In this document: piece by piece, positions 1,858 through 25,516 of the stretch
Layout: every line of letters begins with the position of its first letter
How positions within the stretch are numbered: the stretch's first letter is position 1
Source: a virus
Taxonomy: Duplodnaviria; Caudoviricetes
IMG/VR virus record: IMGVR_UViG_3300024346_000004
Length of the DNA stretch: 64,000 nucleotides
Direction: 5' to 3' (one strand)
Made by a program: the position numbers and the translations under genes
Notes under the pieces: generated by a model
The model's input: only the letters and a program-made list of their open reading frames with translations
Told to the model about the DNA's origin: nothing
Database searches by the model: none

Positions 1858-3351
1858 CTATTTTGCGCCTGGGAATTCTGGAGTTGGTCTGTGTAAACCA
1901 TAGTCTTTGATGAACTTAAATCTCTTGCCTCTACTCTTAGGCATTCCTCTATAAACTTCATCCCAGTCACTATCATTACCAGTAAGCTTAGATATCTGGT
2001 GTAATCGGTCAATAAGTCCACGGTGAGCGACCATAGTAGGCATAGGTGTTTTCCCTACCTTACCTTTAGCTCTAGCTCCTGCCAAGAATTTAGCTCTAGA
2101 TCTAATAATTTTAGCAGCAAAATATTCGTCTAATTCTTGACTTGTAATTTTTTTGGACAACATTGCAATCATGTTGTCTATTTCAATTTTTTCTTGAGGA
2201 GTAGAAGTTAGGTTGAGAGGCTTTTGTTGTATACCTAAAGCGTCTCTGAGAATCATAGTAACCCAGCCTAAACCTGAATTAAACTTAATGTCTGCTAAAG
2301 CAATCGCTGTATTAGCTGGAAGTTTAGAAACACCTAATTCTTGCCAATCAACAAATGCTGCTTTTTCAGCTTCTTCTTTTGTTAATTTAAAGACTGATTT
2401 AGGTGGAAAGCCATAAGCTCTGACTAATCCATTATAATGTTTTTGTGTAATTCCAAAGTTTGTTTCCCCGCCTGGATCTGTTTTCATGTTAACAGCTCCA
2501 CCTTCTTGCTTGTTTCTGAAATCTTTGTAAATTTCATATACTTCTGCGGGATCAGTTTTAAATGGAAGACCTTTATTTTTCTTACTGTCAAATACTAACC
2601 AGTGTTTTTTGACTGATTTTCTTTCTCTGCCTGTTATTTTCCCAGAATCCAAATCTTCCATCATTTTGAGTTTGATTTTTCTTCTAGCTGGCATTTTAGC
2701 TTTAGGTCTAGCTATTTCTTTTTTGACAGGCTGCTTTATTTCTGGTTGTTCGATAATAGGTTGCGGAGCTGCTTGCTCTACTATAGGCTTATCGTACAAA
2801 GGATCCTGAACCATTTGCTCAGGTGTAGTTTCTTTTGGAGTTATTAGTTGTTCTATTTTAATTAAGTTTGAAAGATTTGGATCTTTAGGGTTATTTAGAA
2901 TAGCAGCTTTAAATGTTTGGCTATCTAAAACTCCAGTTGCAGATATGCTTTGAGCTCTTTGGAAAACTACAGTAGCATCCACGGTAGCTTGTCCGAAATC
3001 ATTATCTACATCAAGCCCGGCATTACTATTCGCATTTAGATAACTTTGCCACGCTCCAACAGCTGTATGTTTTGCGCCTTTACCAAAAGGTTTGAATTCT
3101 GTAATATTATAGTTTTGTAATATTTTTGCTGGATTTTCTAAATATGTTTGGATTAATTTAGTAGTTGTCCCAGCTACAACACCTGCTAATGTTAGAACTG
3201 CAAATAAAGTATTTTTATTATAGTACCAAGGCTCATTACCAGCTACTTTTGTAAATACATCATGTATTTTTGCAGCTTCTATGAGTTTACCTTGAGATTC
3301 TAAATCGCAGCAGATATTATTTAATTCAAGTAAAAGGGCATACCTATTCAT
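1858..3351 (-). CDS. Peptidoglycan hydrolase: leader peptide, hydrophobic segment, PG-binding domain and GH108-like lysozyme
   Basis: PG_binding_1-like DNDFGQATVDATVVFQ..TGVLD; GH108 motif EGG.VN..TDPGGETNFGIT. Confidence 0.8.
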   Translation of the reverse strand: MNRYALLLELNNICCDLESQGKLIEAAKIHDVFTKVAGNEPWYYNKNTLFAVLTLAGVVAGTTTKLIQTYLENPAKILQNYNITEFKPFGKGAKHTAVGAWQSYLNANSNAGLDVDNDFGQATVDATVVFQRAQSISATGVLDSQTFKAAILNNPKDPNLSNLIKIEQLITPKETTPEQMVQDPLYDKPIVEQAAPQPIIEQPEIKQPVKKEIARPKAKMPARRKIKLKMMEDLDSGKITGRERKSVKKHWLVFDSKKNKGLPFKTDPAEVYEIYKDFRNKQEGGAVNMKTDPGGETNFGITQKHYNGLVRAYGFPPKSVFKLTKEEAEKAAFVDWQELGVSKLPANTAIALADIKFNSGLGWVTMILRDALGIQQKPLNLTSTPQEKIEIDNMIAMLSKKITSQELDEYFAAKIIRSRAKFLAGARAKGKVGKTPMPTMVAHRGLIDRLHQISKLTGNDSDWDEVYRGMPKSRGKRFKFIKDYGLHRPTPEFPGAK

Positions 3352-3360
3352 GGATATATT

Positions 3361-3389
3361 TTTCTATCTAACAAGGAGGTTTACCCTTT
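3361..3389 (-). promoter_or_regulatory. Putative phage late-type promoter AAAGG-N18-TAGAAA
   Basis: Same bipartite motif upstream of several leader-bearing genes. Confidence 0.55.
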
Positions 3390-3627
3390 AGATTTTACGT
3401 ATTTCATCTAACAAAACATATGCCCCAATTAGATTAGAAGCAGAATCATTAATTTGTTGTACTAAACATTTTACTAAAATATATCTTTTTTGTGTATCTT
3501 CTTCAGACATAATAAGATTTTCAGCTTTTAAATCGCTGGCATATTTTTCCATAGCGTACATTGTTACTTTGAATTGTTTCGTAAGTAAATGTAAACTGTC
3601 GGTAAATTCTTTTTCTTTATCTTTCAT
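3388..3627 (-). CDS. Hypothetical protein
   Basis: 79 aa ORF coupled to the GT2 gene by an ATGA overlap. Confidence 0.65.
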   Translation of the reverse strand: MKDKEKEFTDSLHLLTKQFKVTMYAMEKYASDLKAENLIMSEEDTQKRYILVKCLVQQINDSASNLIGAYVLLDEIRKI

Positions 3628-4382
3628 TCTCTAATATTATGTCCAGGGTATGGATATTTTCTGTCCTTGTATGAAATAAAATATCCTATCTTTTCGTCAT
3701 TGAAAGGATAATTATATTTTACTGGTCTGCCATCACTATCCTTGGTAAATCCCCACTTATTATTGTAATATTCTCTTAATTTGGGGAAATATTTTTCTTC
3801 GTATGTATCTAATAGTCCATCAATAGAGTTCATACTAAAACTTCCAATATGTTTATGCTTGAATACAGTCTTAGATGGAACAAGATTTAATTTTTCTAAT
3901 CTAATCTCAAAATCAGTGTCTTCGTAATATGCTGGATATATATTTTCATCAAACATTCCAACAGTATCTAAGGCATATTGATTATAAATAAAACAAGCAA
4001 AATCCCATTCGCTTAATATAATAGGACAAGTATAATTCCTATGAGCGAATTTTATATAATCATTAAATCCAGTATCTACAAATGCAAAATCATCATTCAT
4101 AATAATGCAATGATCATATTTGTTCTCAATATAAGCAAATGAGATAGTGTCATTCCATGTTCTTGCTAATCCTCTATTTTGTCTATAATCAAAGCATCTA
4201 ATGTGTTTATATTTACTGGCTAAGGAATATATTTTTTTAGCTATTTCTCGATCTTCTGAATGATTAAATAACAATATTACTACTTCATGAGCTGCATTGT
4301 TAGAATTAATAATAGAAGTTACACATGTTTCTATTACTTCTGGATTACTAAAACAAGGTATACCTACAACAACATTTGCCAT
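3624..4382 (-). CDS. Glycosyltransferase family 2 (GT-A)
   Basis: VVVGIPCF, NRGLARTWN, IMNDD, VGMFDENIYPAYYEDTDF. Confidence 0.9.
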   Translation of the reverse strand: MANVVVGIPCFSNPEVIETCVTSIINSNNAAHEVVILLFNHSEDREIAKKIYSLASKYKHIRCFDYRQNRGLARTWNDTISFAYIENKYDHCIIMNDDFAFVDTGFNDYIKFAHRNYTCPIILSEWDFACFIYNQYALDTVGMFDENIYPAYYEDTDFEIRLEKLNLVPSKTVFKHKHIGSFSMNSIDGLLDTYEEKYFPKLREYYNNKWGFTKDSDGRPVKYNYPFNDEKIGYFISYKDRKYPYPGHNIRE

Positions 4383-4417
4383 AATAAAAATATACAGATT
4401 TCTTTTATAATAGGTCT

Positions 4418-4948
4418 ATGGATACTTTAAAATCATTGTGCGCTGATTTGAATTCTTTTACTGATAAAGATACTGTTCATTGTTATCTAGATGTTTATGA
4501 TCATCTTTTCTTACCATATAAAGATAAAGAAATTAATTTCTTGGAGATTGGGACAGATCGTGGTGGAAGTTTGATGTTGTGGGATAAATATTTCCCCAAT
4601 GCTAATATTTATGGATTAGATATTAAACATCCAGATCTTGAAATTCCATCCAGAGTAAACTTCTATCAATCAGACGCAACGGATTCTAATTGCTTAAATT
4701 TATTCCCAGAAAATATTAAATTTGATATTGTAATTGAAGATGCATCTCACTTATTAGAACATCAAATCCTTACATATTCGTTCATGAAAAATAGAATGAA
4801 CAATGGTGGATTATTTATTATTGAAGATATTCAGGAATATGGTATTGCTAAAATGAGAATGCAGCAATATTTTGGTGATTTTGATGTTTATGATCTAAGA
4901 TATATCAAAAATAGATATGATGATATCTTATTTGTTTTTAAACATTAA
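4418..4948 (+). CDS. Class I SAM-dependent methyltransferase (sugar O-methyltransferase-like)
   Basis: FLEIGTDRGGSL, IYGLDI, FDIVIEDASH, GGLFIIEDI. Confidence 0.85.
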   Translation: MDTLKSLCADLNSFTDKDTVHCYLDVYDHLFLPYKDKEINFLEIGTDRGGSLMLWDKYFPNANIYGLDIKHPDLEIPSRVNFYQSDATDSNCLNLFPENIKFDIVIEDASHLLEHQILTYSFMKNRMNNGGLFIIEDIQEYGIAKMRMQQYFGDFDVYDLRYIKNRYDDILFVFKH

Positions 4949-5496
4949 CCTCTTTGCACCATTTCGCACATAACATCAACTTCGTAGTCAGTGCAAATAT
5001 TACATAGTCTGTCTAGCTGATTTAAAATATTGATAGTAGATTTATTAACCTGCATCTGTTGATCTATTTTTTCTTCGGCTAGCATGATTTTAGATTTTAA
5101 GTATTTAGGGTGATAGTTTTTATTCTTGCTGATTTCCAGTATCCATAATAAAGCTAATATAAGTTCATTTTGCACTTCTACACAAAAATATTGCGATCTA
5201 ATATCTACTGCATGTAAATCTAATGTGTAACCAATTAAGTCTGATTCAACAATGATTATTTTCTTAAACAATACATCATCATATTCGTATTCATATTTGA
5301 TTGGAATGTTGTCAATTATGTCTACCCATTGTTTTAGTAGCATTCTATTATCATAGTTCAAGATTGCGTATGACAGACATTCCGATGCATCACTGCTATA
5401 ATTTGATGGTAAATGTAATGAAGATTTCCATAACACATTATCAATATTGTATTCATCGGATATTTTAGGTTCAAATTTTAAAATATTGTATGCCAT
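4945..5496 (-). CDS. Hypothetical protein
   Basis: 183 aa ORF; TATAAT 6 nt upstream of the ATG. Confidence 0.7.
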   Translation of the reverse strand: MAYNILKFEPKISDEYNIDNVLWKSSLHLPSNYSSDASECLSYAILNYDNRMLLKQWVDIIDNIPIKYEYEYDDVLFKKIIIVESDLIGYTLDLHAVDIRSQYFCVEVQNELILALLWILEISKNKNYHPKYLKSKIMLAEEKIDQQMQVNKSTINILNQLDRLCNICTDYEVDVMCEMVQRG

Positions 5497-5507
5497 AAAA
5501 CAATTAT

Positions 5508-5535
5508 AAAGGTTTCTTAAAATTTTTTATAAAAT
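5508..5535 (+). promoter_or_regulatory. Putative phage late-type promoter AAAGG-N17-TAAAAT
   Basis: Bipartite motif ending 8 nt upstream of ATG 5544. Confidence 0.55.
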
Positions 5536-5543
5536 ATATAAAT

Positions 5544-6386
5544 ATGAAAATAATTATTTCTAGTTGCAAATATCATGAATCTGTTGGAAATTTTCACCAA
5601 GCAGATATAAATGATAGGGTGTTACAAAAGATTGCTAAGACCCCTGAAGGCGAACCAATTATTGAAAAGTTAGATTGGGTCAATACTTCGCTCAAACCCA
5701 AGGACGTGATAAAAATGGAGTCAGATGTATATCCTCCTGATTTCCATGTATTTTCAGATCTGGAAGTACCATCTTATGTATATATGACTCCAGAACAACA
5801 AAAATTAATACCTAAACCTGCAAGAGACAAAATTTATAAAGAAATAAGAGAAAAAGCTGATGAATATCTTATAGAAGATGATAATGATAAATATATTGTA
5901 GATGGTATGAATGGGATATTCTATTTTATTTTATCTGTAAATAATAGAAAGAAAAAAATAGAAGTAGAAGATCTTACAGTTATTCCAGGTAACAGAAGAA
6001 CAAATTTGATGATAGCTTTAGACAGATTATATAAGCTTCTAATGCCTTATCAATCTCAAGGATTTTCAATTATAGGATCAGCTAGAAAAACAACATCTTG
6101 GCCTATGATTAAAAACATGGTCAAACAAGGATGGCTTATACCTGTTAGAGGCAAAAGAATAAAAAAAGTTGTCAAAGATGATCAAGGAAGAGTTGTTGAT
6201 ATGAAAACTAGCATGGATGATATTGGGGATGAAGAATTACATGAATTTGAATTCCAATTAAATCTTCCATCTGCTCTTCCAGATTATATTCAAAAAGCTG
6301 CTGCCGAGGCTTATGAAAAACTTAGTCCTAAAAAAACTTTTGTTAATAAAGGCATAGATAAGTTGAAAAGTTTTTTTGCAAGATAG
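5544..6386 (+). CDS. Leader-bearing protein, possible GNAT-like core
   Basis: N-terminal leader ..CKYHESVGNFHQADINDRVLQKIA; IEVEDLTVIP..ARKTTS pattern is weakly GNAT-like. Confidence 0.6.
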   Translation: MKIIISSCKYHESVGNFHQADINDRVLQKIAKTPEGEPIIEKLDWVNTSLKPKDVIKMESDVYPPDFHVFSDLEVPSYVYMTPEQQKLIPKPARDKIYKEIREKADEYLIEDDNDKYIVDGMNGIFYFILSVNNRKKKIEVEDLTVIPGNRRTNLMIALDRLYKLLMPYQSQGFSIIGSARKTTSWPMIKNMVKQGWLIPVRGKRIKKVVKDDQGRVVDMKTSMDDIGDEELHEFEFQLNLPSALPDYIQKAAAEAYEKLSPKKTFVNKGIDKLKSFFAR

Positions 6387-6422
6387 TAAACTAGTATAAA
6401 ATAAAATAGTTTAGGAGATATT

Positions 6423-6920
6423 ATGAATAGATCATTAGTAAAATTAGTAAAAATAGCTAATTTATTGGATTATAGAGGAATGCACGACGAAGCAGATAAA
6501 TTGACTCGTGTTGCTGTTAAAATGGCTCAAAATTTCGATAGTGAATACAGCAAGTATGAAATGCGTACTCAACGAGATCTTGATAAAAGTTTAGAAGATG
6601 GATTTGCTGGTGGAAACTATTCAAATGTATCATCTTTAGAAAATGACCCGATGTTGAAAAGATATAAAATGGAATATCAACAAGATCCAATGTCAGAGGG
6701 CGATCAAGAATTGGAAAATTCAGTTCAAGATAAACTAACGGTTGCATTATCAGGAACATATTTGGAAGACAGTGTTAAGAGTGGCGATACTTTATATATT
6801 TTAGAACCATGGCTTAATGATGAGATGTCTATTTCTGAAGCTTGTGAAAAATATGAATCTGATTTGAAAGAACAGAGAAATGATTTTGGAGATGATGGTT
6901 ACGATCCATTAGATGACTAA
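6423..6920 (+). CDS. Leader-bearing acidic protein
   Basis: Leader LVKIANLLDYRGMHDEADKLTRVAVKMAQ; AGGAG SD. Confidence 0.75.
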   Translation: MNRSLVKLVKIANLLDYRGMHDEADKLTRVAVKMAQNFDSEYSKYEMRTQRDLDKSLEDGFAGGNYSNVSSLENDPMLKRYKMEYQQDPMSEGDQELENSVQDKLTVALSGTYLEDSVKSGDTLYILEPWLNDEMSISEACEKYESDLKEQRNDFGDDGYDPLDD

Positions 6921-6926
6921 AATAAG

Positions 6927-6954
6927 AAAACCCCTCTGGAAAGAGGGGTTTTTT
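6927..6954. terminator. Bidirectional intrinsic terminator
   Basis: AAAACCCCTCT-GGAA-AGAGGGGTTTTTT between convergent genes. Confidence 0.85.
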
Positions 6955-6959
6955 AGTTA

Positions 6960-8280: not shown

Positions 8281-8285
8281 AATAC

Positions 8286-8822: not shown

Positions 8823-8832
8823 AATGAAGCCT

Positions 8833-9417: not shown

Positions 9418-9419
9418 AA

Positions 9420-9791: not shown

Positions 9792-9858
9792 GATTAATGA
9801 CCAATGTATTATATCATAAAAAAAAAGGGGTATATTTTTGTATACCCCTTTGAAAATT

Positions 9859-10720: not shown

Positions 10721-10807
10721 TTTATTTAATAATACCATAAAAAAATAAATTGAAAAACACTTATAATAATATTGTCACATAAAGTTTTATAGCTTAAAGG
10801 AGCGCAT

Positions 10808-13227: not shown

Positions 13228-15921
13228 CTAAAACAATTTCACATTAGGGAAACTTGTCAATACTTCAAATCCCATATTGTCCCAGTGTCTTTCATCTGCA
13301 AAAGGTCTAAAGTTAATCCAATATGAGTTATCTGGTTGCCAAGTTCTTTGTTCACCAATTTCATTATAAGTGTGATAGATCAAGTGAGTATAGTTGACAT
13401 TGATTTCTTCAAATGGGAAATCAACAGGTAATGGAGAATCAGCAACTAAATATCCATCTTCTGTAACTACAACTCTGTTCTTTGAAACATATAAATCAAA
13501 CTTGACTCTTCTATCTAATCCCTGCCAAGTTCTATTTAAAGGATAATCTCTTCTTTCAACACTTGGTCTAAAGAAAATTTCACCTTCATATTTACCTGAA
13601 ACAGCATTCATAGTAGATCTATAAATAATTGCTCCTGAACGATTAGTGGAATAAACATCCATTAATTTATTTAACGATGCTTTTGATGTTTCTTTAATCC
13701 ACCAGTTATTAGGATTAAAATCAATGTCATCAATCATCTTAAATGTTTCAGGTGTCCATTCATATTCAGCAGCGCCACCAAATTCAGCAAATCTAATCCA
13801 GCCAGATTTTGGAGAATAATTTGACTCTAAATTGAAAGATGGAAACTTATTACCATCAAAAAACTTAGATGATAGCTTGACATTAACATCATTACCATTT
13901 TGAACTACAGAGTTAGCTACAAATGTACCTACCCTGTATTCAGTGAGATTATTGATGCTTCTATAAGGGGCTGGGTAAGAATAAATACTATGTCTATCAG
14001 CAAACTTCACTGGCACTGAATAAGATTTTCTTGAACCATCAGGATTATAACCAGTGTCAATGTTGATATTATGATGACCAGCACCAATCGCCCATCTAAA
14101 TAACTTACCAGACTTTGTGTTCATAGCAATTTTATCTGCTGCTTTACCTGAATAAACAGTTTCTCCAGCGGGTAATAAAAGTACATCACACCATCTTCTT
14201 CCAGAGAAATGCGGGTCAACTTCAAATGTAACGTGAAGAACTTTACCTCCACTTATATTTGCAGTTTTCTTAGGACTCATTAACATAACACCATTACTTA
14301 AGTGAGCCCAACCAGGAACAGGAAGTGAAGCACCATCATAAATAGTGTCCATAAAGTGAGAACCCATTAAGAACACAGTAGAATGGTTTGTATCTAAATC
14401 ATCTAAAAAGAAATTCCATTTGTCATTCTCAAACCATTTTAAAAATAAATGAGCTTCGTTTTTATATTGATTGTTTGGACCAAATCTAAAATCAAATATA
14501 TCTTGTTTTGTTGGCAATTGAACTATAGGCTGAAAATTTCTAAAGTTGTCAAAGAAAACTTGCTCTCCAGTTAGAACTCTTTGAAATGTAGTAACCTTAT
14601 ATGGATTAGATTTTGCAACAACATTAGGTTCATTAGAAGGATCTCCATGACCATTTACTGCTGCATGAATTTCTCCATTTGGCCCACTAGCCCCCGGCCC
14701 AATAATTCCATCAATTTTCTGATAAGGACCCATTTTATCAAGTGCTTCAACAATAATATTATATGATTGATTGCTTGTTAAACCATTCATTTCAATCATA
14801 TTAAATCCAGAAGAATATTTGACAGTATTTGAATTACCCTCAACATAAGCTCTGTAATCAATAGCACCCGGAACATAATCAAACTTTACAACTACACTGT
14901 CGTCATTAGGTTCGTTCCCAGTAATATTAATAGGAGTAGGAGATAAATCTTTAGGACCAAATGCTGTATTAATTTCAACAATTGGACCTAATGTTTCTTG
15001 AACTTTAAATTGATCCCTATTAACTGAACCAATTTGATATTTGTATGTCTTACCTGAAACAACATTTGTATCAATATAATATTGAGACCATAATCCAGAA
15101 CAAACTATGACTCCATCTCTATAGACATTGTAAGCATTTGGAGCATCTTGACCCCAAACTTGTTGATCTTGCCATTTGATGAAGTTTCTAGGTCTGCCTC
15201 TATTCCATTCAGGACTTACAACATATTTTCCAGGAGTTGACGGAGGATTTGTTCTCCAGCCAAAGTTGTAATTTGGTGCCCAACTTCCTCTTGCCATACC
15301 TAAATTTGATGGTAATGATTCTAATCCATATTTATCAACTGCTGTAACTGTATATGTCCAGTGATCTTGATAAATTAATTTACTTACAGTGAATGAGTTG
15401 GTCTTTGATGAACCAATTTTATTATCGTACCTGTAAATATTATAATAGGTAGCTTCGGGACTTGGTTCCCATTGCAGGATATCAAAAGGGCCATTATCCC
15501 AGAAACCAAATGTTCTTAAATTTGTAGGCGCTTCTGGATTCTTGAGAACTAATAACGGAATAGTAACAGTAGATTTCTCAGACATTTTAAGATATCCGCT
15601 TGGTACTAATCCTGCAACATAATAATCCCATTTTTGCTGATATTTGACGTTTCTATCAATGGTCATATTTTCGTTATTAGTCAATTTTGCAAAAGGTTTA
15701 TTATAATCAGGCTTAATTCCTTGTTGAACTCTGTATATATTATATCGAGTACATTTGGGTATTAAATCCCATTTGAGCTTTACATGATAATTTGACGGAG
15801 TGCCTACACAATAACACAATTCCACCTGCGTTGAGAAATTCTTCACTTGTGGTAGTTTTTGAGCATTTACTCCAGATATTATAATGTACAAGAGACACCA
15901 TAAAACAATAGCTTTCTTCAT
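13228..15921 (-). CDS. Secreted/surface protein with fibronectin type III repeats and a beta-rich C-terminal domain
   Basis: Signal peptide MKKAIVLWCLLYIIISGVNA; repeated W..YNIYR..Y.V.AV FN3 patterns; GGAGG SD. Confidence 0.8.
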   Translation of the reverse strand: MKKAIVLWCLLYIIISGVNAQKLPQVKNFSTQVELCYCVGTPSNYHVKLKWDLIPKCTRYNIYRVQQGIKPDYNKPFAKLTNNENMTIDRNVKYQQKWDYYVAGLVPSGYLKMSEKSTVTIPLLVLKNPEAPTNLRTFGFWDNGPFDILQWEPSPEATYYNIYRYDNKIGSSKTNSFTVSKLIYQDHWTYTVTAVDKYGLESLPSNLGMARGSWAPNYNFGWRTNPPSTPGKYVVSPEWNRGRPRNFIKWQDQQVWGQDAPNAYNVYRDGVIVCSGLWSQYYIDTNVVSGKTYKYQIGSVNRDQFKVQETLGPIVEINTAFGPKDLSPTPINITGNEPNDDSVVVKFDYVPGAIDYRAYVEGNSNTVKYSSGFNMIEMNGLTSNQSYNIIVEALDKMGPYQKIDGIIGPGASGPNGEIHAAVNGHGDPSNEPNVVAKSNPYKVTTFQRVLTGEQVFFDNFRNFQPIVQLPTKQDIFDFRFGPNNQYKNEAHLFLKWFENDKWNFFLDDLDTNHSTVFLMGSHFMDTIYDGASLPVPGWAHLSNGVMLMSPKKTANISGGKVLHVTFEVDPHFSGRRWCDVLLLPAGETVYSGKAADKIAMNTKSGKLFRWAIGAGHHNINIDTGYNPDGSRKSYSVPVKFADRHSIYSYPAPYRSINNLTEYRVGTFVANSVVQNGNDVNVKLSSKFFDGNKFPSFNLESNYSPKSGWIRFAEFGGAAEYEWTPETFKMIDDIDFNPNNWWIKETSKASLNKLMDVYSTNRSGAIIYRSTMNAVSGKYEGEIFFRPSVERRDYPLNRTWQGLDRRVKFDLYVSKNRVVVTEDGYLVADSPLPVDFPFEEINVNYTHLIYHTYNEIGEQRTWQPDNSYWINFRPFADERHWDNMGFEVLTSFPNVKLF

Positions 15922-16405: not shown

Positions 16406-16637
16406 ATAACTTGTCTAATCCTAGATCATCATAAACTTCCCAAATTGGCCCAGCATTGTCTAATACTGTTTGATGCAATATAAAATAATCTTCCCAAGAA
16501 TTAAAAAACACATTTCCCATGCTGTCTATAATTTTTTCTTCATTCCGATATATATAATAGTCTTCAGGCCATCTTCTAGATCTAATTTTTAATCCTAAAT
16601 CTATCATTGGACGAGACATTTGACTAAATAATTTCAT
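16404..16637 (-). CDS. Divergent DUF2829/Tad2-like protein
   Basis: MKLFSQM..MIDLGLKIRSRRW..YYIY..WEVYD; GGGAG SD. Confidence 0.55.
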   Translation of the reverse strand: MKLFSQMSRPMIDLGLKIRSRRWPEDYYIYRNEEKIIDSMGNVFFNSWEDYFILHQTVLDNAGPIWEVYDDLGLDKL

Positions 16638-16730
16638 ATTATCTCCCACCAGTACATTATATCTTCTAAAGGTTATATCTTGTATAATTGACAAATAATA
16701 TCTATAATATTATTGCTTTTAGGTAACTTT

Positions 16731-19700
16731 ATGTCTCAAATCAAATTCGTCAACACATCTTCAATTGTAAGTATCAAAATAGCAAATATGTATGATTCTA
16801 TTGGTGATTATTCTTACTCAGATAAATTTGACAGATATGCGAATTTAATGCTCAAAATCGCACAACAAGAACAAAATGAAGAGACTGAAGATATTATTGA
16901 AGAAACACCTGAAAATGAACATGCGCAATATATTGTAGACCATCCTTTAGCTGATGAACAATCCTCTAAATTAAAATCTCAAATTAGTGAACAAGATCAT
17001 GATTTATTTGATGAATTTTATAATGCTTGGAGCTCAGGAAATACCATCAATGAATCTATCAAACAGCTATATGATCGAGTAAATAAACCGGAAAATAAGA
17101 GCCTTGGAAATTATTTAAGGGTTATAGTTGAAAATGTTATTCAAGCATTCTATAAAATTCCAGACTCATCATTGTATGAATTTACTGATCAATTTCTAAA
17201 AGGTAATCTTAAATTTGCTGAAGATGAGCTTTTATTATCTTTAAGATATTCAAAGCCAGAACAAATTATAAGATTTGACAAACAATATAAAATTGATTCA
17301 GCTGTTAAATATTTACCTGATGGTCATGCTAAAAAACTATTTTCAGAATATTTATATTATCATTCTAATCCAGAAAATTTAGGTCAAATATTTAATGATC
17401 TTATGAATCTTTATGATTTAGCTGATTATTTTGAAAATTCATCGGAACTTCAAGCTTACTTAAATGATGCGTCTGCATTTGATTCTAAAATTCCTGAAAT
17501 GAATAAAGAGGAAATTGTAAATTTCAAAAAAGCTGGATTATCTTTTTTACCTGGAAAAAATAACTACCAAGAACAACTTAACATCCGATGCCAAGATAAT
17601 AAGATATATTATTTTATAAAAAATATTATTTTTTTTAGAGGCATACAAGAACCTGTTCAAATCAGCAACAATGTGTTAGAACGATTGACTGCGCATTATT
17701 CTCCTGAACAAGTCAGAGTAATTTTTGATAATATTAAAAGTCTAATGAGAGATTCTGATGCAGAACATATCATCAGAATAAATACAATACTTCCATTTGA
17801 TCAAGCTATCGCTAAGTATAAAGAATTACAACATGATGGAACTGAACTAAACCTATATTACAAACAAGTTCTGGGCAAAGATTATGAATTATTTAATTTA
17901 GAGCCTGATCAAGTAAACCAGACCCTATATTTAGTTTTGATAGAAGCTGACAAAGAAAAAGCAGAAATATACATAGGATCATTATCTGATCTTTTAAATA
18001 ATTATGTTAGAAGTGCTATCACAAAATCTAATGCTAAATATTTCTTGGATTATATTACACAATTTGACAGAGACTATGTTCAACAATATTTAAAAACTTA
18101 TTATCTTTCTACTTACATCAAATTTCGCCCTGACAGATTACAAGAAATTCATCCTATTGAGATTCTGAAGCATAATAATCCTGACATTGTTTTAGCCTAT
18201 CATAAATCTAATCCAGAATTTTCAAGCTTAAGTGTAGATGATATTGAAAAGTATTCAGAATTTTATAAAAATAATTCAAATGCTGTAGATATTCCATATA
18301 AAGATTTAGAACCTCATATTGCAAATAAGAATGTTCAAAATTATATTTTGTTTGGTTCTACTGACCCTAATAAAGCTAAAATAGCTGACAAGATTTATAA
18401 AGCTAACAGTTATAGATCAAGAGAAATCGCAGCTCGTTTTAAAGACAGTGATATTATCGATATATCTAAGATAGGTTTACTAAATATAAGTAATCCAAGA
18501 TTTGCACATTTATCATTAACTGAATTAAATTTACTTTCTGATAAAGTAAACCATTTTGAGACATTAGAAAGAATTAAATTAGTTAAAGATAGTTTCAAGA
18601 ATCCTAGAAATACAGCATATCATAACTTTGAAGAAGGAAGTGCTGATTACAATAAGCTCTTATATATTTTATTTCATAATTATGATCTAAGAGGGCGAAA
18701 TCCTCAATTGCTTATCAAACTTTTAGATCTTCATGCAAAAGATGAAATGATAACAGAATTAGGACTAGATGATGTTAATCATATGATCCGTAATAGGGTT
18801 GCTTGTGATTTACCAAATATTAATGTTTCAGATGCAAAAATACATGTAAGAAATAGAAAAACTATTATACATGATATAGAAGTTAAAGTATACAATAAAT
18901 ACCATACAGCAATTAAAGCACAAAACACTGAGATCGCTAAATATCCTATAAATCAAATATTAGATTTCGTAACAAAATATGATAATGCTTTAAATACAGA
19001 TGAAGATGCTGAAAGTTATTTACCTAAAGGTGTAACAGCTAATCAAGCTGGTGATGCATTGCAAGCTATAAATGATGGGCATGGTTTATTAATTTATTTA
19101 AATAGAGAATCAATGATAAAATTTTATAAATTAATAATGGATAAAATTATTGGGATTAATCCTGATTATTCTGACTCTACTACTAAACTTATGCCTATAT
19201 ATGCAGCAACAGCTGCTACTGCAGATATAAATTATTATTTACCTGATGTCATAACAGAAGATTTTATAAAAGAAATTACAAGTACTCAAATTCCCAATAA
19301 ATTAAATATAGACTTTTCAAAAGCTGAAGTAAGGTTAAATTCAAATACACAACTAGAATATGTAAATGAATCTATGGCACTTCTCAGATTATTTAATAAA
19401 TCATTACCTAATTTTCTTGATAAATTTATTATCGCATCAGGAAAAGATTACGGTAAGATATTTAAATTTTCGGAAATGGATGATTATGTTCAAAGTATTG
19501 TAATACATTCTGCTGCGCAAAAGTTTGACAAAATTGATCCTGGTCCGGGTTTATCTGATTATATCATTCAGCAAATGAATAATAAAAATTTATTTCAACT
19601 TGCTAAAGTAGCGAGAATGTGGAATAAAGAAATAAATATTGCTGATGAAAAAATGAGTATAGCCTCCAAATCTCTCGTGTCTGAATTATCTAAAATGTAT

Positions 19701-20477
19701 GATGTAAGTGAACTCTCTGATTTAATTAAAACTTCATCATCATTAATTTTCTTCAGTAAGATTGAAGTGCAAGAACCTAGATTAGCAAAAGAATTTGATA
19801 AACATTTTGAATTTTCTGATAAACCGGATTTTCATGATCATTTAGGTATGGATGAAAATGATAGATTATTAAAAATGTATCAAAATATAGAAATATTATA
19901 CAAACATAGAACTAACTTTCCTCAGCCAGAGTGGTCAGATATTGAAGAAGAATATTACGGATATACAGCTAGATTCTTACACAGAAATGACACAAGAGGT
20001 ATGTTTATAGGAAATTATGCTGGATGCTGTCAACATCCAGATAGTTATGCTGCAACTCTTGCATTAGATGGTCAAATATCAGATAAATCTTCGTTCTTTA
20101 TAATAGAAGATCAAAAAGGTCAAATGATCCTGGGTAGTTATGTTTGGGAAGATGATAACGGCAATATCTGTTTTGATAGTTTTGAAACAATTGGAAGCAA
20201 ATTATTCGGTAGCGTAGAAGCACAAACAATAGTTGACAAACTTATTTATGATGTAGCAAAAAAAATGAACACTAATGTTAATTTTGGTTCTCAATCTAGC
20301 GGTGCATATAGACCAAGACAATTTAAGAAAGACACAAAAACACCATTTAAGAATAACGCTAGACCATGGGAAAATCCATACGTAAAAACTATATTAGATT
20401 TAAATTCAAAACAAATTAATACTAAGGACTTGTATGTAGCTGATTCTGAAAGCCAAATAATTATTATTCAACGATAA
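16731..20477 (+). CDS. Large leader-bearing protein with a C-terminal CCQ (PcfJ-related?) domain
   Basis: Leader IKIANMYDSIGDYSYSDKFD..LKIAQ; C-terminal YTARFL..IGNYAGCCQ..SYVW..CFDSFE shared with 34757..37132; AAAGG-N19-CAAAT upstream. Confidence 0.8.
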   Translation: MSQIKFVNTSSIVSIKIANMYDSIGDYSYSDKFDRYANLMLKIAQQEQNEETEDIIEETPENEHAQYIVDHPLADEQSSKLKSQISEQDHDLFDEFYNAWSSGNTINESIKQLYDRVNKPENKSLGNYLRVIVENVIQAFYKIPDSSLYEFTDQFLKGNLKFAEDELLLSLRYSKPEQIIRFDKQYKIDSAVKYLPDGHAKKLFSEYLYYHSNPENLGQIFNDLMNLYDLADYFENSSELQAYLNDASAFDSKIPEMNKEEIVNFKKAGLSFLPGKNNYQEQLNIRCQDNKIYYFIKNIIFFRGIQEPVQISNNVLERLTAHYSPEQVRVIFDNIKSLMRDSDAEHIIRINTILPFDQAIAKYKELQHDGTELNLYYKQVLGKDYELFNLEPDQVNQTLYLVLIEADKEKAEIYIGSLSDLLNNYVRSAITKSNAKYFLDYITQFDRDYVQQYLKTYYLSTYIKFRPDRLQEIHPIEILKHNNPDIVLAYHKSNPEFSSLSVDDIEKYSEFYKNNSNAVDIPYKDLEPHIANKNVQNYILFGSTDPNKAKIADKIYKANSYRSREIAARFKDSDIIDISKIGLLNISNPRFAHLSLTELNLLSDKVNHFETLERIKLVKDSFKNPRNTAYHNFEEGSADYNKLLYILFHNYDLRGRNPQLLIKLLDLHAKDEMITELGLDDVNHMIRNRVACDLPNINVSDAKIHVRNRKTIIHDIEVKVYNKYHTAIKAQNTEIAKYPINQILDFVTKYDNALNTDEDAESYLPKGVTANQAGDALQAINDGHGLLIYLNRESMIKFYKLIMDKIIGINPDYSDSTTKLMPIYAATAATADINYYLPDVITEDFIKEITSTQIPNKLNIDFSKAEVRLNSNTQLEYVNESMALLRLFNKSLPNFLDKFIIASGKDYGKIFKFSEMDDYVQSIVIHSAAQKFDKIDPGPGLSDYIIQQMNNKNLFQLAKVARMWNKEINIADEKMSIASKSLVSELSKMYDVSELSDLIKTSSSLIFFSKIEVQEPRLAKEFDKHFEFSDKPDFHDHLGMDENDRLLKMYQNIEILYKHRTNFPQPEWSDIEEEYYGYTARFLHRNDTRGMFIGNYAGCCQHPDSYAATLALDGQISDKSSFFIIEDQKGQMILGSYVWEDDNGNICFDSFETIGSKLFGSVEAQTIVDKLIYDVAKKMNTNVNFGSQSSGAYRPRQFKKDTKTPFKNNARPWENPYVKTILDLNSKQINTKDLYVADSESQIIIIQR

Positions 20478-20682
20478 TACATTCTGCTTCATCATGTCTT
20501 AAAATAATGTAATATCCTCTGATAAGTATTTCTATCGGGCCTTTATTATTTATATGTCTCACTATCATAACTATGGTATTTTTAGTAAATCCAAGTTCAG
20601 ACAATCTATTTCTAAAAGGCCCAACAACAGACGTTACTTTATATTCATGACCATCTGTCCCGCAGCATAATTTTGTAGACAT
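20464..20682 (-). CDS. feoA: FeoA (SH3-like) domain protein
   Basis: RNRLSELGF..GPIEILIRGYYIILRHDEAECI. Confidence 0.85.
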   Translation of the reverse strand: MSTKLCCGTDGHEYKVTSVVGPFRNRLSELGFTKNTIVMIVRHINNKGPIEILIRGYYIILRHDEAECIIVE

Positions 20683-20790
20683 ATTAGTATATTCTATTTT
20701 ATTGTGAGCTGTAGACGGTTTAGCAAGAAGAAAATCAAACACAGGTCTATAATATCATAATCCTGTAAAATATAGTAGGACAAAACAATT

Positions 20791-23304
20791 ATGTGGTATC
20801 AAAAAATAGTAGAAGCTGGTGCGTTAGATGAGTTGGCTGGTGGAATGGATACTAGTAAATCACCAGAAGATATATTATGGGAAATACGACATAATTATTC
20901 TATTTCAAAATTACCAAATTTTGAACATCTTTATAAATATCTTCTTGACTTGATTGACAACAAGTATACGAGTGATTATTTAACATCTGTTATAACACAC
21001 TTGATTTATATGTATTCGAAAGATGCTGAAACTGTACATAGAGCTAATAGATTAGTTCCGTTAATGATAAAGAATAATAAAATTTCTCAAAACGAAGAAA
21101 TGATGTTATTGCCTGACACTTTCTCACATATGGGTAGTACATTAGAGACACATAACACTGTATATAATTTCGGATATAATAAACTCTTAGCATACACAAA
21201 AGAAGGCATTGATCTTCCAAAGCGTGTTCGTATATATATAATGATGAATATGGACACACTATCTAGTTCAAGCATGCAACAGAGTGAAGCAAGAACAGAA
21301 ATTAAAAAATATATTACGGATAAAGATCCTATGTATGAATTTCTTAATGCTGATAAATATTCTGGAGAACAAATACTTAAAAATATTATTGATAACATAC
21401 AATCAGATGCTGGTAGGCAACTTTATTATGATGTTGTCCAATATTCTGGATTACCTATTGACGATTATTTATATTTATTAGATGAAGCTCACAATGAAAG
21501 AGTAATGGATGATCTACCCAAAGTTTATGATCTTTTAATAAATGATCAAAAATTTGATAAATATATAGAATATTTAGATAAAAATAAAAATAAATTTAGT
21601 CCAGAGCATTTTGAAAATAGATTCGTTGGTGCTTTCAAATACGGAATGACTTATTTTATGGGTGATTTTTGGTATGAAATATTTAAAAACAATAGACAAA
21701 TTATAAATGAAAAAATTTATCCTTCTTGTGAATATTATTACAAACCTTATTTACACAGATTAGGTGTTGGACCGAAAGAAGAAATAATCAAAGAATACAT
21801 AAAAGCTTCATTGGAAAATAAAGATTTAGCAAATAGGAAATTTAAAGAAATACCCACAAAAGAAGAAATTGATGCTTATGTGCAAAAAAACTCTGAAAAA
21901 CTTAATTCATATCAGTCTCAACGAGCTCAAAATACACAAACTCAAAATACAACACCACAAAGTGCTAATTCTCCTATACTCGATATATTTCAAAAAAATC
22001 TACAAAATGGATATATTGAAAAACATGATATTACTGGAGAATATGAAAAATTACTAAATGATATTCTAAATTCATTTGGATTCAATTCAGATGATCAAAA
22101 TATCATAAGTGATATTAAATCAAGATTAAAGATTTATGTATTTAAAAATTCTGAATTTTATAAAGATTTATTAAATACATCACTTCAAGAATATGGTTTT
22201 ATCACACCTACATTAATGAACTCTTGTGGATATTTTGTTCCTAGATTTTCGGATAACAATAATGGTCCTTCAATATTTATCAACGAATTTATATCTGAAG
22301 ACTATGTAAATAGTGACAATATTATTAACAATCTTGGAATAACCAAAGACATGATTAATATGTCTACAGCTGCTCATGAATTAGCCCATTTAGCAGATTA
22401 TGTTATCAAAGGCGGATCAGAAGTATTCAGTAATGTAGATCCTAAAACATCCTTAAAAGAAGGCGAAGCATACAATCAATCTAGATTGTATTTATCAGAC
22501 ATTAGAGAAATTGTTGCAAGAGTATATGGAAATACTTCTTATATGATTGAAATTCTGCATAAAAGAATTGAAGAAATGAGAACATCGGAAATCATTAGAA
22601 AAGCTGTTGTAGAAGAATTATCAGATATGCTGATGAGTAATGAAGCAAGCTGGTTGAATGCTACTCCTATGGTATCTGAACAAAAACTTCAAGAATGGGC
22701 AGAAAAAAGATTTGGACCTTATGAAAATTCTGAACAACCTTATACCCAAGCTACTGAAGATTACCTAAAACAAAAACAACTAGCAATTAAATTTTATGAA
22801 GAAGCTGGTAAGGTCAATCGAGAAGACATAAAAAAAGCTACTATCGAAGAAATACAATCATTAGAAGATCAAGCTGAAATATTAAAAACAAGAGTAAGTG
22901 AAGATAGCGAAGAATATAAAAAACTTCAAGAAGACATCAAAAAGTTAAAATTAAAAATCAGAAATATTGAAGCGGGTGCATTTGATCATGATATTTATAC
23001 TATCGTTAAATCTGTAGCGTCTTATATAGCATTTAAAGATATCAAAATAACTAATGAAATAGCTGCTGATCCTAATTATGTTTCTCCAATATCAATTAGA
23101 AAAGACCAGATGGCCGCAAATACAACGGGAGATACAACACCACTTTCAAATCAAGAACTTAAAACTATGAGAGATTTTGATTTAGGACAGGTCGCTCAAG
23201 GTACAGAAGGTGGTAAAACTTTAAAAGAACCTAAACCTTCATTTATGTCATATGATATCTATAATCCTAAATGGAGAGAAGAATATCCAGACACATTCAA
23301 ATAA
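20791..23304 (+). CDS. MWY-leader protein with a zincin metallopeptidase motif
   Basis: Starts MWYQKI; TAAHELAHLAD (HExxH) with a downstream E in REIVAR. Confidence 0.75.
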   Translation: MWYQKIVEAGALDELAGGMDTSKSPEDILWEIRHNYSISKLPNFEHLYKYLLDLIDNKYTSDYLTSVITHLIYMYSKDAETVHRANRLVPLMIKNNKISQNEEMMLLPDTFSHMGSTLETHNTVYNFGYNKLLAYTKEGIDLPKRVRIYIMMNMDTLSSSSMQQSEARTEIKKYITDKDPMYEFLNADKYSGEQILKNIIDNIQSDAGRQLYYDVVQYSGLPIDDYLYLLDEAHNERVMDDLPKVYDLLINDQKFDKYIEYLDKNKNKFSPEHFENRFVGAFKYGMTYFMGDFWYEIFKNNRQIINEKIYPSCEYYYKPYLHRLGVGPKEEIIKEYIKASLENKDLANRKFKEIPTKEEIDAYVQKNSEKLNSYQSQRAQNTQTQNTTPQSANSPILDIFQKNLQNGYIEKHDITGEYEKLLNDILNSFGFNSDDQNIISDIKSRLKIYVFKNSEFYKDLLNTSLQEYGFITPTLMNSCGYFVPRFSDNNNGPSIFINEFISEDYVNSDNIINNLGITKDMINMSTAAHELAHLADYVIKGGSEVFSNVDPKTSLKEGEAYNQSRLYLSDIREIVARVYGNTSYMIEILHKRIEEMRTSEIIRKAVVEELSDMLMSNEASWLNATPMVSEQKLQEWAEKRFGPYENSEQPYTQATEDYLKQKQLAIKFYEEAGKVNREDIKKATIEEIQSLEDQAEILKTRVSEDSEEYKKLQEDIKKLKLKIRNIEAGAFDHDIYTIVKSVASYIAFKDIKITNEIAADPNYVSPISIRKDQMAANTTGDTTPLSNQELKTMRDFDLGQVAQGTEGGKTLKEPKPSFMSYDIYNPKWREEYPDTFK

Positions 23305-23306
23305 AT

Positions 23307-23333
23307 AAAAGCCAGAGAATATTCTCTGGCTTT
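23307..23333. terminator. Bidirectional terminator
   Basis: Palindrome GCCAGAGAATATTCTCTGGC flanked by A and T runs. Confidence 0.8.
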
Positions 23334-23337
23334 CTTA

Positions 23338-23592
23338 TTATTCGTCAAATATTATCCAATCATCATTAACAATATCTTGAAGGTATGGACAATAAGCTTC
23401 AATACCATCCTGAAGATTGATTAAGAAAAATGTAGCATAATCAATCTCACTGGTATCTACAATAGTTTCATCAAATTCACCCTCATCATCTTGTTTTGTA
23501 TTACCTAAAGCAATCCAAGATACTTCATCCCAGCAAGTTCTACGAGCTTTGTATCCTTGCTTCAAATATTTAAGAGTCTGCACAAATTTCAT
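23338..23592 (-). CDS. DUF2829/Tad2-like protein
   Basis: MKFVQTLKYLKQGYKARRTCW..AYCPYLQDIVNDDWII. Confidence 0.8.
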   Translation of the reverse strand: MKFVQTLKYLKQGYKARRTCWDEVSWIALGNTKQDDEGEFDETIVDTSEIDYATFFLINLQDGIEAYCPYLQDIVNDDWIIFDE

Positions 23593-23660
23593 ATCTCACC
23601 TCTATGTATCTATTATATCATAGAAAGGTCATAAATGATTATATCTGTAAAAAAAGAACT

Positions 23661-24224
23661 ATGTGGTACAGATACGCAGCAATTACAATTAACAATAAAG
23701 AAATTCCAGAAGAAGATTTTTTTAATTCTTTTTCCAATGTTGCTTCTAATGAAAATGAACAACACTTCTGGATAGTAAATGGTGAGAAATATGCACCACC
23801 TAAAAATTATGGTCATCAACATACTTCAATGATGTTAAAATTAAAACATGGAATGATGCCAGGTGATGCAGATTTTGAAGAACATCCTATTGAATTTGTA
23901 GGGAGAGGCTTAGGACAATTTGCTCAAGGCGGAACAGTCAGAGTTACTAAAATGATAGATATGGCTGACATAACTATCTATGGCCCAACAAATGATCTCA
24001 CCCTAAATAATATTATAAAATTTGTTACTCCAGATTCAATCAACAAATGGGAAATATTAAATGTACCTAATAATCCGCATGGCAGAGGCTTTGATTCCTT
24101 AAAACAATCTATAAACAATCTCTCATTACAAAATACCACAAATGTAAAAGAAGATATTAATATTGCCCCTATACAAAGAGTTGATAATACACAATCTTTC
24201 TATAAAGGAAGATCAGGAGACTAA
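23661..24224 (+). CDS. MWY-leader hypothetical protein
   Basis: Start reassigned to MWYRYAA; AAAGG-N19-TAAAAA promoter at 23624-23653. Confidence 0.75.
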   Translation: MWYRYAAITINNKEIPEEDFFNSFSNVASNENEQHFWIVNGEKYAPPKNYGHQHTSMMLKLKHGMMPGDADFEEHPIEFVGRGLGQFAQGGTVRVTKMIDMADITIYGPTNDLTLNNIIKFVTPDSINKWEILNVPNNPHGRGFDSLKQSINNLSLQNTTNVKEDINIAPIQRVDNTQSFYKGRSGD

Positions 24225-24227
24225 GAT

Positions 24228-24926
24228 ATGTGGTACAGGACAGCAATTGATTTTGGAAAATTATTTGGTATTGAACAACCACAACAAACAAATACTCCTG
24301 AACCTATGGAAAAACCCGGAGTGCCTGATGATGTTTTTAGAGAAGTGGTGAGATCAAATATCCCTGATCCAGTAAATCAAATAGATCATTCCAAAGGCGA
24401 TTATCATTTAATTCTCACTGGAACTGGAGCTATTCATCAAGGTTCAAGCCATAGCAACTATATAGATAAAATATTAGATCAATCTCGTAAAAGTCTTCGT
24501 AATAATCCAGAAATATCAGAAAAATATAATATCAGAAACTTGCCAGACAAAGCTTATGGTCCAATGGATTATGCAGAAAGAATAAATTTTGATTCTGGAC
24601 CTGATCAACCTTTTTTAGCACAAGAAGATGCTGTCACTGAAATTCTACATGATTATTTTGACAAAGGTATAAGAATCAGTCACATGGGTTCAATGATGTC
24701 TGTAAATTCTGTACACGTTCCAACATATACACAAATGCAAAAGTTATTTGAAATTATTAATTTAATACAACCCGCAAATATAAGATTTAAAATTAATACT
24801 GGAAAAGGTTTGTTTGATAGAGTATATAATGTAAATAAAGTTGCTGATTTTAAAAATGACATTAAAGATTTTGAAATGAATAGAAAAAAAATACCATCTC
24901 TTATGAGTCAATGGAGAGATTATTAA
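24228..24926 (+). CDS. MWY-leader hypothetical protein
   Basis: Starts MWYRTA. Confidence 0.8.
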   Translation: MWYRTAIDFGKLFGIEQPQQTNTPEPMEKPGVPDDVFREVVRSNIPDPVNQIDHSKGDYHLILTGTGAIHQGSSHSNYIDKILDQSRKSLRNNPEISEKYNIRNLPDKAYGPMDYAERINFDSGPDQPFLAQEDAVTEILHDYFDKGIRISHMGSMMSVNSVHVPTYTQMQKLFEIINLIQPANIRFKINTGKGLFDRVYNVNKVADFKNDIKDFEMNRKKIPSLMSQWRDY

Positions 24927-24927
24927 T

Positions 24928-25287
24928 ATGTGGTATAGAATATCAGCAGACAATATAGATATCAAAAAAACATGGACAAAAACATCAAATAACCAAGAAT
25001 CAAATGAAGAATGGCTAGAAAGACATAAAGTAGATAGAGAAGGCGATAAATACGTTTTTTATCATGGCTCTAGATTAGACTTAGAAGAGCTTAGATCAGG
25101 CTCTTTATTAGCTACATCTCCACAAGAAGCTGAAGATTTTGGTAATACTAACTTTTGGAATGATAAAAGAAAAACATTCAAAGTATATAAAGTAGTAGTA
25201 AATGCGGATGAAATACACCCAGGATATTGGGCTAGTCTTGTAAATGATCATCCAGTAGAAATATTATATAAGAAAAGAAATATATAA
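24928..25287 (+). CDS. MWY-leader protein, ADP-ribosyltransferase-fold-like
   Basis: Starts MWYRISA; FYHGS..LLATSPQEAEDFG..VYKVVV resembles the ART strand motifs. Confidence 0.55.
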   Translation: MWYRISADNIDIKKTWTKTSNNQESNEEWLERHKVDREGDKYVFYHGSRLDLEELRSGSLLATSPQEAEDFGNTNFWNDKRKTFKVYKVVVNADEIHPGYWASLVNDHPVEILYKKRNI

Positions 25288-25288
25288 A

Positions 25289-25516
25289 ATGTGGTATTCA
25301 TTAGCTGCTAGAACTAAAACATATATCTACAATGAAGAAGAAAAAACATTGGCTGAACATTTAGAAGATATATTCCCTTATGCAAATTCGGTAGATATAT
25401 ATTATCTTAAATCAAATGTTCAAAAATTAGCTATGAATGATGAAGATGTAATTAGAATACTCAGAAAAGCAGATTACGGAGATATTTTTCCTACATATCA
25501 AAAAAGATGTAGATAG
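25289..25516 (+). CDS. MWY-leader small protein
   Basis: Starts MWYSLAA. Confidence 0.7.
   Translation: MWYSLAARTKTYIYNEEEKTLAEHLEDIFPYANSVDIYYLKSNVQKLAMNDEDVIRILRKADYGDIFPTYQKRCR

Follow-up and report, generated by a model that had tools for sequence, protein, structure and literature searches.

Two conserved N-terminal tags on unrelated proteins of an uncultured relative of phage G: a possible head-targeting and processing code

The 64,000-nucleotide stretch analysed here, called the window, corresponds to bases 84,646-148,645 of a 165,921-bp IMG/VR virus contig (record IMGVR_UViG_3300024346_000004; G+C content ~31%, CheckV completeness 46%). Unrelated proteins encoded in it begin with one of two conserved N-terminal tags, a long one of ~37 residues, predicted to fold as a two-helix hairpin, and a short one of seven residues, M-W-Y-(K/R)-h-A-Q (h, hydrophobic). 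An earlier note on this DNA had named ten such N-termini, four of the long kind, five starting with MWY and one starting with MNRYSQ, as a candidate virion-targeting and maturation code, and all ten were recovered at their positions. The comparison was extended to the rest of the contig and to relatives found via the tag, which are contigs of 129-358 kb with completeness up to 89%; individual genomes are denoted below as G001, G002 and so on.

The long tag is carried by four window proteins. The gene at 1858-3351 (minus strand) encodes a 497-amino-acid (aa) protein with the tag at residues 1-38 (DNA 3238-3351), ending in KVAG, followed by a membrane segment (residues ~49-70), a PG_binding_1 domain (95-149) and a GH108 domain (281-360), in agreement with the lysozyme previously proposed as one of the cargoes. 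As far as its domains tell, this arrangement suits an ejected wall-cutting protein. The relative G003 encodes a protein with the tag, a transmembrane segment and GH108 together with a separate, untagged GH108 lysozyme, which is expected if the job of the tagged copy differs from lysis from within. The 280-aa protein (5544-6386, plus strand) starts with a diverged tag (residues 1-32, DNA 5544-5639; hidden Markov model (HMM) independent E-value (i-E) 6e-13) ending in QKIAK, and the 165-aa protein (6423-6920, plus strand) starts with a tag at residues 1-36 (DNA 6423-6530) ending in VKMAQ; the cargo part of neither gave a family match. In the 1248-aa protein (16731-20477, plus strand), an extended tag (residues 1-45, DNA 16731-16865) ends in LKIAQ and is followed by an acidic linker; this protein gave no Pfam, PHROG or PDB match.

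Five other window genes, all on the plus strand, start with MWY. The 837-aa protein (20791-23304) begins with MWYQKIVEA, and its orthologs begin with MWYSRIIES in G002, where the gene adjoins the terminase/head module, and with MWNYKRSKRIVEA in G003. The zincin that had been read into this protein comes down to one HExxH motif at residue 529 and to structural leads, all weak, that point to peptidases of the zincin and “polyvalent protein” types. The 187-aa protein (23661-24224) starts with MWYRYAA; an in-frame ATG is present 19 codons upstream (23604), yet a homolog in another contig, L007, starts with MMWYKFAA. In the 232-aa protein (24228-24926), the start MWYRTAI is followed by a variable Pro-rich linker and then by a conserved domain, and a (M/V)WYRxA start was present in 96/96 full-length homolog clusters (one of them with MWYKTA) at an overall identity of only 47-92%, with the Pro-rich linker as the least conserved part. 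The 119-aa protein (24928-25287; MWYRISA) and the 75-aa protein (25289-25516; MWYSLAA) have G002 orthologs starting with MWYKSAQ and MWYRESG, respectively. For the former, described before as ADP-ribosyltransferase (ART)-like, a weak ADP-ribosyltransferase lead from the ESM Atlas could be retained, and the suggested GNAT-like cargo found nothing in its support among the analyses run. Except for the lysozyme, Pfam, PHROGs and NCBIfam named no cargo in the window, and PDB sequence searches with the 837-aa, 1248-aa and 791-aa (the MNRYSQ-initial one) proteins and with the protease region described below gave nothing.

The HMM scan of the contig proposed in the earlier note, using the four long leaders, yielded 9-10 further copies, and one iteration brought the count over the 165,921 bp to 13 clear copies at N-termini, plus a few that were weak; at least 13 proteins of the contig, 4 of them in the window, start with the two-helix tag. 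In a six-frame scan, 14/14 matches (i-E < 0.05) coincided with the beginning of an open frame; the contig end truncates one of the 14. Identity of ~70-80% is kept across the copies, and the cargo behind them is unrelated, as had been claimed for the four window proteins: BLASTP found none of the cargo parts alike except for a peptidoglycan-binding domain common to two proteins. Recent gene duplication as the origin of the tag is ruled out by this unrelated cargo. The claim of selection at the protein level also held, since synonymous codons vary among the copies (TAT/TAC, AGA/AGG, GCT/GCA) and the 5' DNA is unrelated; the same two observations rule out a DNA-level repeat or a shared promoter cassette. 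No enrichment of AGGA-N18-GAA, a putative late-promoter motif, upstream of tagged genes was detected in three genomes (p = 0.3-0.6), although this test is weak because many of these genes lie inside operons, and the isoelectric point of the cargo showed no consistent shift in tagged proteins.

The distribution of the long tag was followed with a profile of 13 leaders (A1), which was searched against 1.84 billion cluster representatives and matched 1402 protein clusters at E <= 0.001. Among the best 150 of these 1402, 82 have the tag at their very start (residues 1-3), in 7 it follows closely on a probably mis-called start, and ~60 are long proteins with 3-14 partial matches, recognized by eye as 42-residue repeats of the TPR_10/12 type (TPR, tetratricopeptide repeat). 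The 73 proteins of the N-terminal class with cargo of at least 30 residues, taken from the same best 150, were distributed by single linkage among 49 families. Each of the genomes G001-G005 has 6-23 hairpin copies, often in tandem clusters. Every database match that was looked up was a metagenomic, unnamed protein; no entry of Pfam, PHROGs or NCBIfam covers the long tag, and no description of it was found in the literature. A tblastn search with the 45-residue tag against 50,697 phage records found none, possibly through low-complexity masking.

The long tag is sharply bounded. The initiator Met is located exactly 36 residues ahead of the conserved Ala in 79/82 of the tag-initial database proteins, and the information content amounts to 3-4 bits over most of the tag, 3.8 at the Ala, 2.2 at the next residue (Gln) and 1.2 after that, and then falls below 1. 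The 82 copies were chosen by profile score, so that conservation within the tag is inflated, but the drop behind it is still informative because the profile reached seven positions beyond. When the first 45 residues of the 165-aa protein (6423-6920) were modelled by AlphaFold2 with a 53-sequence alignment, helices were predicted at residues 3-17 and 21-43, with a mean pLDDT of 88.8 and with confidence fading past residue 40. Foldseek found no significant fold for this 45-residue model, the top rows being single TPR units with E above 1. The sequence is amphipathic and charged, without a hydrophobic core, many of its polar surface residues are conserved, and the first five residues (MNKRQ) are conserved to an unusually high degree.

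At the same time, the hairpin is not confined to N-termini. It is present at the extreme C-terminus of ~900-1000-aa paralogs in G002 and G003 and of one protein of the window's contig, and some database proteins have two or three copies inside. Given these C-terminal and internal copies, the hairpin behaves, as judged from its positions in the proteins, as a portable docking module and not as a propeptide only.

The short tag is also distributed far from randomly. With both strands counted, the contig contains the sequence ATGTGGTAY 10 times, and 9/10 occurrences start open reading frames (ORFs) of at least 75 aa, few codons past an upstream stop, while base composition would give ~3 occurrences anywhere in the contig and ~0.1 at gene starts by chance. 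Nine proteins of the contig, 5 of them in the window, are MWY-initial. A set of MWY proteins drawn from three genomes has K/R at position 4 in 29/34 (background 16%) and A/S at position 6 in 28/34 (background 14%), position 7 being mostly Q, and MWY is kept in orthologs even where cargo identity is down to 23-40%. The seven residues M-W-Y-(K/R)-h-A-Q align with the final seven residues of the long tag, V-M-K-(K/R)-(I/L)-A-Q, and looser short leaders, MSKYRFAQ, MSENIRIAQ and MKTVIKRIAQ, have the same ending.

This ending, (K/R)-x-(A/S) in the earlier note, had been suspected to be N-terminal rather than internal, and the counts bore this out. In the predicted proteome, [KR][IVLM]AQ was found 10/10 times in the first 50 residues of a protein, and with the pattern widened to F or T at position 2 the figure was 11/12 (binomial p = 1e-6); scrambled and reversed motif controls had no N-terminal bias. 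The bias was repeated in two relatives (p = 8e-5 and 9e-4), and the strict motif is nearly restricted to N-termini in the window's contig, which lacks the head module and where only 6 internal sites were counted in 39,000 residues.

Both tags are present in G001-G005, and MWY and hairpin genes neighbour each other in other contigs. The profile search that detected the hairpin in G001-G005 found none in phage G or LR756511, and MWY leaders are absent from these two genomes as well. The two leader families distinguished at the outset are therefore real as two leader types, but with their shared end motif, co-clustering and occurrence in the same genomes they look like a long and a short form of one system, at the level of sequence comparison. 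In another metagenomic relative (L007:8226-8735, plus strand, and neighbouring positions), two MWY-initial proteins, one with a DnaJ domain and one of 563 aa with a weak ART-PolyVal match, are encoded next to four hairpin-tagged genes.

The head module of the window phage is not on its contig, and its relatives G002 and G003 and phage G stand in for it. The G002 capsid protein is 47.5% (tblastn) or 49% (BLASTP) identical to gp27 of Bacillus phage G (Donellivirus gee), and the G002 portal is 28% identical to phage G gp14. From this homology of the capsid and portal, together with that of the protease considered below, the window phage is recognised, on the evidence of its relatives' genes, as an uncultured jumbo phage and a distant relative of phage G. 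The capsid protein has >1000 homologs on contigs reaching 420 kb; one of the homologs is assigned to a Bacteroidetes metagenome bin.

In G002, the head module occupies 61.4-40.4 kb (minus strand), in the order of large terminase, 329-aa protein, 146-aa protein, several proteins of unknown function, portal, 1379-aa protein, 562-aa scaffold-like protein, 217-aa protein and capsid protein. Two of the proteins encoded between terminase and portal bear on the tags: the 329-aa protein starts with MSENIRIAQ, and the 146-aa protein is hairpin-tagged. More generally, one long-tag gene is retained within the head-assembly module of the relatives. The N-terminal part of the 1379-aa protein (G002 43855-47994, equivalent to L033:3855-7994; minus strand) is a head maturation protease domain: residues 52-243 match PHROG 18299 “head maturation protease” (E 4e-20), and residues 89-246 share 38% identity with gp19 of phage G, itself annotated as a head maturation protease. 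Behind it, an extension of ~1100 residues, ~69% identical between relatives, contains many copies of the putative cut motif.

To count this motif, the pattern [hydrophobic]-x-[KR]-[aliphatic or T]-A-[QSN] was used outside the first 50 residues of each protein. The 92,000-residue G002 proteome contains 31 copies, and 6/31 are in the 1379-aa protein against 0.45 expected (P = 8e-6), which makes it the top of 417 G002 genes and survives Bonferroni correction; its G003 ortholog, with 4 copies against 0.5 expected, is again the top gene of its genome. Two sites kept between G002 and G003 bracket the protease domain (LIKTAS at 28 and AIRLAQ at 302). Phage G gp19 is likewise bracketed, by VKTAA ahead of the domain and by EKVAS and LKIAS behind it, and further copies are present in phage G gp4, gp7, gp13 and the portal. 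No copy is present in the capsid protein. The resemblance to phage G thus comprises the homologous capsid protein, protease domain and portal as well as K-x-A-(S/A) motifs around the protease domain and in neighbouring head proteins, whereas gp19 is a free-standing protein of 300 aa and the protease of the relatives is the N-terminal part of a 1379-aa protein. The small proteins of the phage G head module (L067, phage G 1-26000) have a common basic N-terminal pattern, e.g., MKRLISKTAA, MSKKISRLKKTAL and MKKSRLKKVS, and starts resembling it occur in the clade studied here (MSRFKKVS, MSKYIKKIV, MSKWIKVSQ); going by these sequences, it may be a third, older leader class.

The end motif common to the short leaders and the head proteins, together with the portability of the hairpin, leads to the proposal of a two-part code that would address proteins to the phage head and then be removed by the head protease; by analogy with known head-targeting leaders, we rate this proposal at about equal chances of being right or wrong. 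The first part would be the folded hairpin of ~37 residues, resembling a single TPR unit, which would dock the protein on a component of the assembling prohead. The second would be the linear motif hydrophobic-x-(K/R)-aliphatic-Ala-(Gln/Ser), either closing the hairpin or alone in the MWY-(K/R)-x-A-Q leader, at which the phage-G-type head-maturation protease would cut. The cargo would thereby be freed inside the head and would exit together with the DNA on infection; as cargo, known or suspected, we count the membrane-anchored lysozyme, the possible ADP-ribosyltransferase, the possible zinc peptidase and numerous small proteins without a known function. All four steps, from docking and cleavage to packaging and injection, are ones that we infer. 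Tentatively, the same two-part code may mark the whole set of proteins packed and injected by a widespread phage-G-like clade, which we find plausible without considering it the probable outcome.

Precedents for both parts come from other phages. T4 internal proteins have in common only a short N-terminal capsid-targeting sequence (CTS), by which they are loaded into the scaffolding core (PMC3012670); in IPI, IPII, IPIII and Alt, the CTS is removed by the prohead protease gp21 (PMC3012670, PMC9026906). As in T4, a short N-terminal peptide is here the only feature common to unrelated, fast-evolving proteins, the tag ends at a motif that recurs in head proteins of the relatives and of phage G and is a candidate protease site, an ADP-ribosyltransferase may be among the cargo (a weak lead in the present case), and the cargo genes are scattered or in variable clusters. 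On the other hand, the tags have no sequence similarity to the CTS, the putative site is (K/R)-h-A-(Q/S) instead of (L/I)-x-E, a folded hairpin of 37 residues takes the place of a 10-residue peptide, far more proteins serve as putative cargo, and the present system is known only from sequence. Searches of G000-G004 with the Pfam families Peptidase_S77, Gp23, Peptidase_S78 and Phage_capsid gave no match, an absence weakly shown, as the controls matched nothing in any genome; the head genes are of phage-G type and were located through PHROGs and phage G.

In the phiKZ-like phage SPN3US, the propeptides of head and ejection proteins are cut by gp245 after A-X-E (PMC10052503, PMC5694885), and the N-terminal propeptides are lost at a short protease motif that recurs within them (PMC10052503). 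This jumbo phage resembles the present case in that the protease and some of the head proteins contain repeats of a short protease motif, and it differs in that no single conserved leader is reported there, only the cut motif, in the protease family and motif, and in a lineage that is phage-G-like here and not phiKZ-like. Cleavage at A-X-E (or S/A/G-X-E) by a protease of the gp245/gp175 type does not describe the tags, which end in (K/R)-h-A-(Q/S) in genomes whose protease is homologous to gp19. In its motif pattern, the 1379-aa protein would match the prohead proteases of T4 and SPN3US, which process themselves, and the substrates of these enzymes, and modular, N-terminal, selected and sharply bounded tags, a protease-flanking motif and a tagged head-module gene fit, by analogy, a T4-like targeting-and-processing code. 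The idea of a head-targeting leader is already known from T4; new are the sequence family, the folded hairpin, the seven-residue form, the putative cut motif and the scale.

Several observations weigh against head addressing followed by cleavage. The protease link rests on the relatives and phage G, since the head module of the window phage is off the contig, and within the window the tagged genes are interspersed with non-structural ones. Neither tag is found in phage G, although its protease is of the same type and its K-x-A-S motifs are similar, so that the protease alone does not explain the tags. The motif is short, and part of the resemblance between tag ends and protease sites could be due to chance despite the enrichment test. 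Removal by cleavage makes little sense for the C-terminal and multi-copy hairpins, and in the predicted structure the end motif sits within a helix. Finally, the members of the tag family that were looked up are unnamed metagenomic proteins, and no cultured member was found.

In another reading, the hairpin would stay uncleaved and serve for docking or oligomerisation, as a single TPR-like unit joining diverse proteins to a common hub (for example a chaperone, a complex in the membrane or a substructure of the virion), with the end motif as part of the binding surface. Its occurrence at N-termini, at extreme C-termini and internally, the conservation of many polar surface residues, the cross-matches of the profile to long TPR-type repeat proteins and the single TPR units as the nearest, not significant, folds are all consistent with such a module. 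The possible likeness to the 42-residue TPR_10/TPR_12 repeats includes the helix-turn-helix pattern L..LA..L...G.y.EA, and the profile matches proteins with 5-14 repeats. However, the tag is one unit at a protein end (1-3 scattered copies at most) and not a tandem array of three or more, its conserved (K/R)-h-A-Q ending has no counterpart in the repeats, and Pfam scans of the tagged proteins found no TPR family at threshold. The seven-residue MWY leaders are too short to fold and yet have the same end motif and the same genome distribution, and the enrichment of the motif around the head protease is left unexplained, and for these reasons we regard an uncleaved module as a fairly unlikely, though by no means negligible, account of the tags. 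A predicted complex of the G002 capsid protein with the tag scored 0.00 against a mark of 0.32, which weighs neither way on binding.

A serious rival absent from the earlier note is that the tags are degrons or adaptor-like handles for a phage ClpX, acting with phage or host ClpP, which time the destruction or remodelling of the tagged proteins during infection. A ClpX homolog, diverged but full-length and with a CxxC zinc module at its N-terminus, is encoded at contig 16579-17955 (plus strand), outside the window; it matches NCBIfam ClpX at E 5e-71 (aligned 8-452, below the curated cut-off), and its gene is directly 5' of three genes with tag-like N-termini. The order of genes in this ClpX-headed operon is conserved in G002 and G003. 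The window itself encodes a ClpP (33180-33779, minus strand; Pfam CLP_protease E 3e-71), an Hsp20 (33849-34352, minus strand) and a second, diverged ClpP-like protein (61691-62332, plus strand). N-motif-1 of ClpX, as reportedly defined by Flynn et al. in 2003, is approximately polar-T/hydrophobic-hydrophobic-basic-hydrophobic, and W-Y-(K/R)-(L/I) resembles this. The MWY short form could qualify as a ClpX degron, and the unusual conservation of MNKRQ at the start of the hairpin would also be in line with this. ClpX reads short N-terminal degrons of five classes (PMC12723719); those such as the lambda O tag are similarly short and aromatic or hydrophobic-basic-hydrophobic, and the phage encodes both ClpX and ClpP.

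At the same time, the tags do not track ClpXP across genomes: phage G encodes ClpX and ClpP (PMC12484599) yet has neither tag, and G003 (88% complete) has 20 hairpin matches and ~11 MWY genes with no ClpP match. Moreover, ClpX degrons are unstructured, whereas the long tag is confidently predicted as a folded hairpin with the motif at its far end, and the motif enrichment in and around the head protease domain is not explained by degradation. A ClpX-related function is therefore judged quite improbable for the two tags together. Export or membrane targeting to the host envelope is very improbable: a hydrophobic segment and peptidoglycan-binding domains do follow just past the tag in two tagged proteins, but the tag has no hydrophobic core and no signal-peptide-like region ahead of its motif, membrane segments are absent from most of the cargo, which includes proteins with zinc-ribbon and DnaJ domains, and the basic region, hydrophobic core and A-x-A site of a Sec/Tat or signal-anchor-release signal were not found, the only membrane segment being that of the lysozyme, behind the tag.

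Proteins travelling with phage DNA act first in the new host and often disarm its defences. To our knowledge, such DNA-accompanying proteins are hard to recognise by sequence outside T4, P1 and phiKZ-like phages. If the tags do mark injected proteins, these could be listed from sequence alone for a large, uncultured and environmentally common clade of jumbo phages, giving hundreds of injected effectors that would include likely anti-defence and host-takeover proteins, and the tag would be usable for loading foreign proteins into giant capsids. Additionally, the shared motifs point to a putative, undescribed head-protease specificity, (K/R)-h-A followed by Q or S, which appears to be shared with phage G, the sole cultured relative. 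Even if head loading is wrong, a conserved 37-residue module on at least 49 unrelated cargo families, without an entry in Pfam, PHROGs or NCBIfam, needs explaining.

Several other features of the window were recorded. The tenth N-terminus named at the outset, that of the 791-aa protein (34757-37132, plus strand), starts with MNRYSQ; the two-helix tag HMM did not match this protein, which has a 76-residue stretch in common with the 1248-aa protein and, by its first residues, is a possible member of a looser x-(K/R)-aromatic-(A/S)-Q short-leader set. The 897-aa protein encoded at 13228-15921 (minus strand) has a signal-peptide-like start and a match to PHROG “major tail protein” at residues 116-199, and may be located on the surface or in an appendage, with domains of an Ig-like or FN3-like type. 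A protein of the IMPDH/GMP-reductase family is encoded at 32222-33217 (minus strand). Adjacent rIIA and rIIB homologs are located at 47767-51106 (plus strand; PHROG E 4e-96 and 3e-64), and, within the phage collection, the rIIA match with the lowest E-value comes from LR756511, a 595-kb uncultured phage (28% identity, E 1e-40). Immediately after the gene of the 791-aa protein, ~1.5 kb (37132-38607) contain no ORF of at least 70 aa; coding strand and GC skew change sign there, and the AT skew reaches up to 0.3 just upstream.

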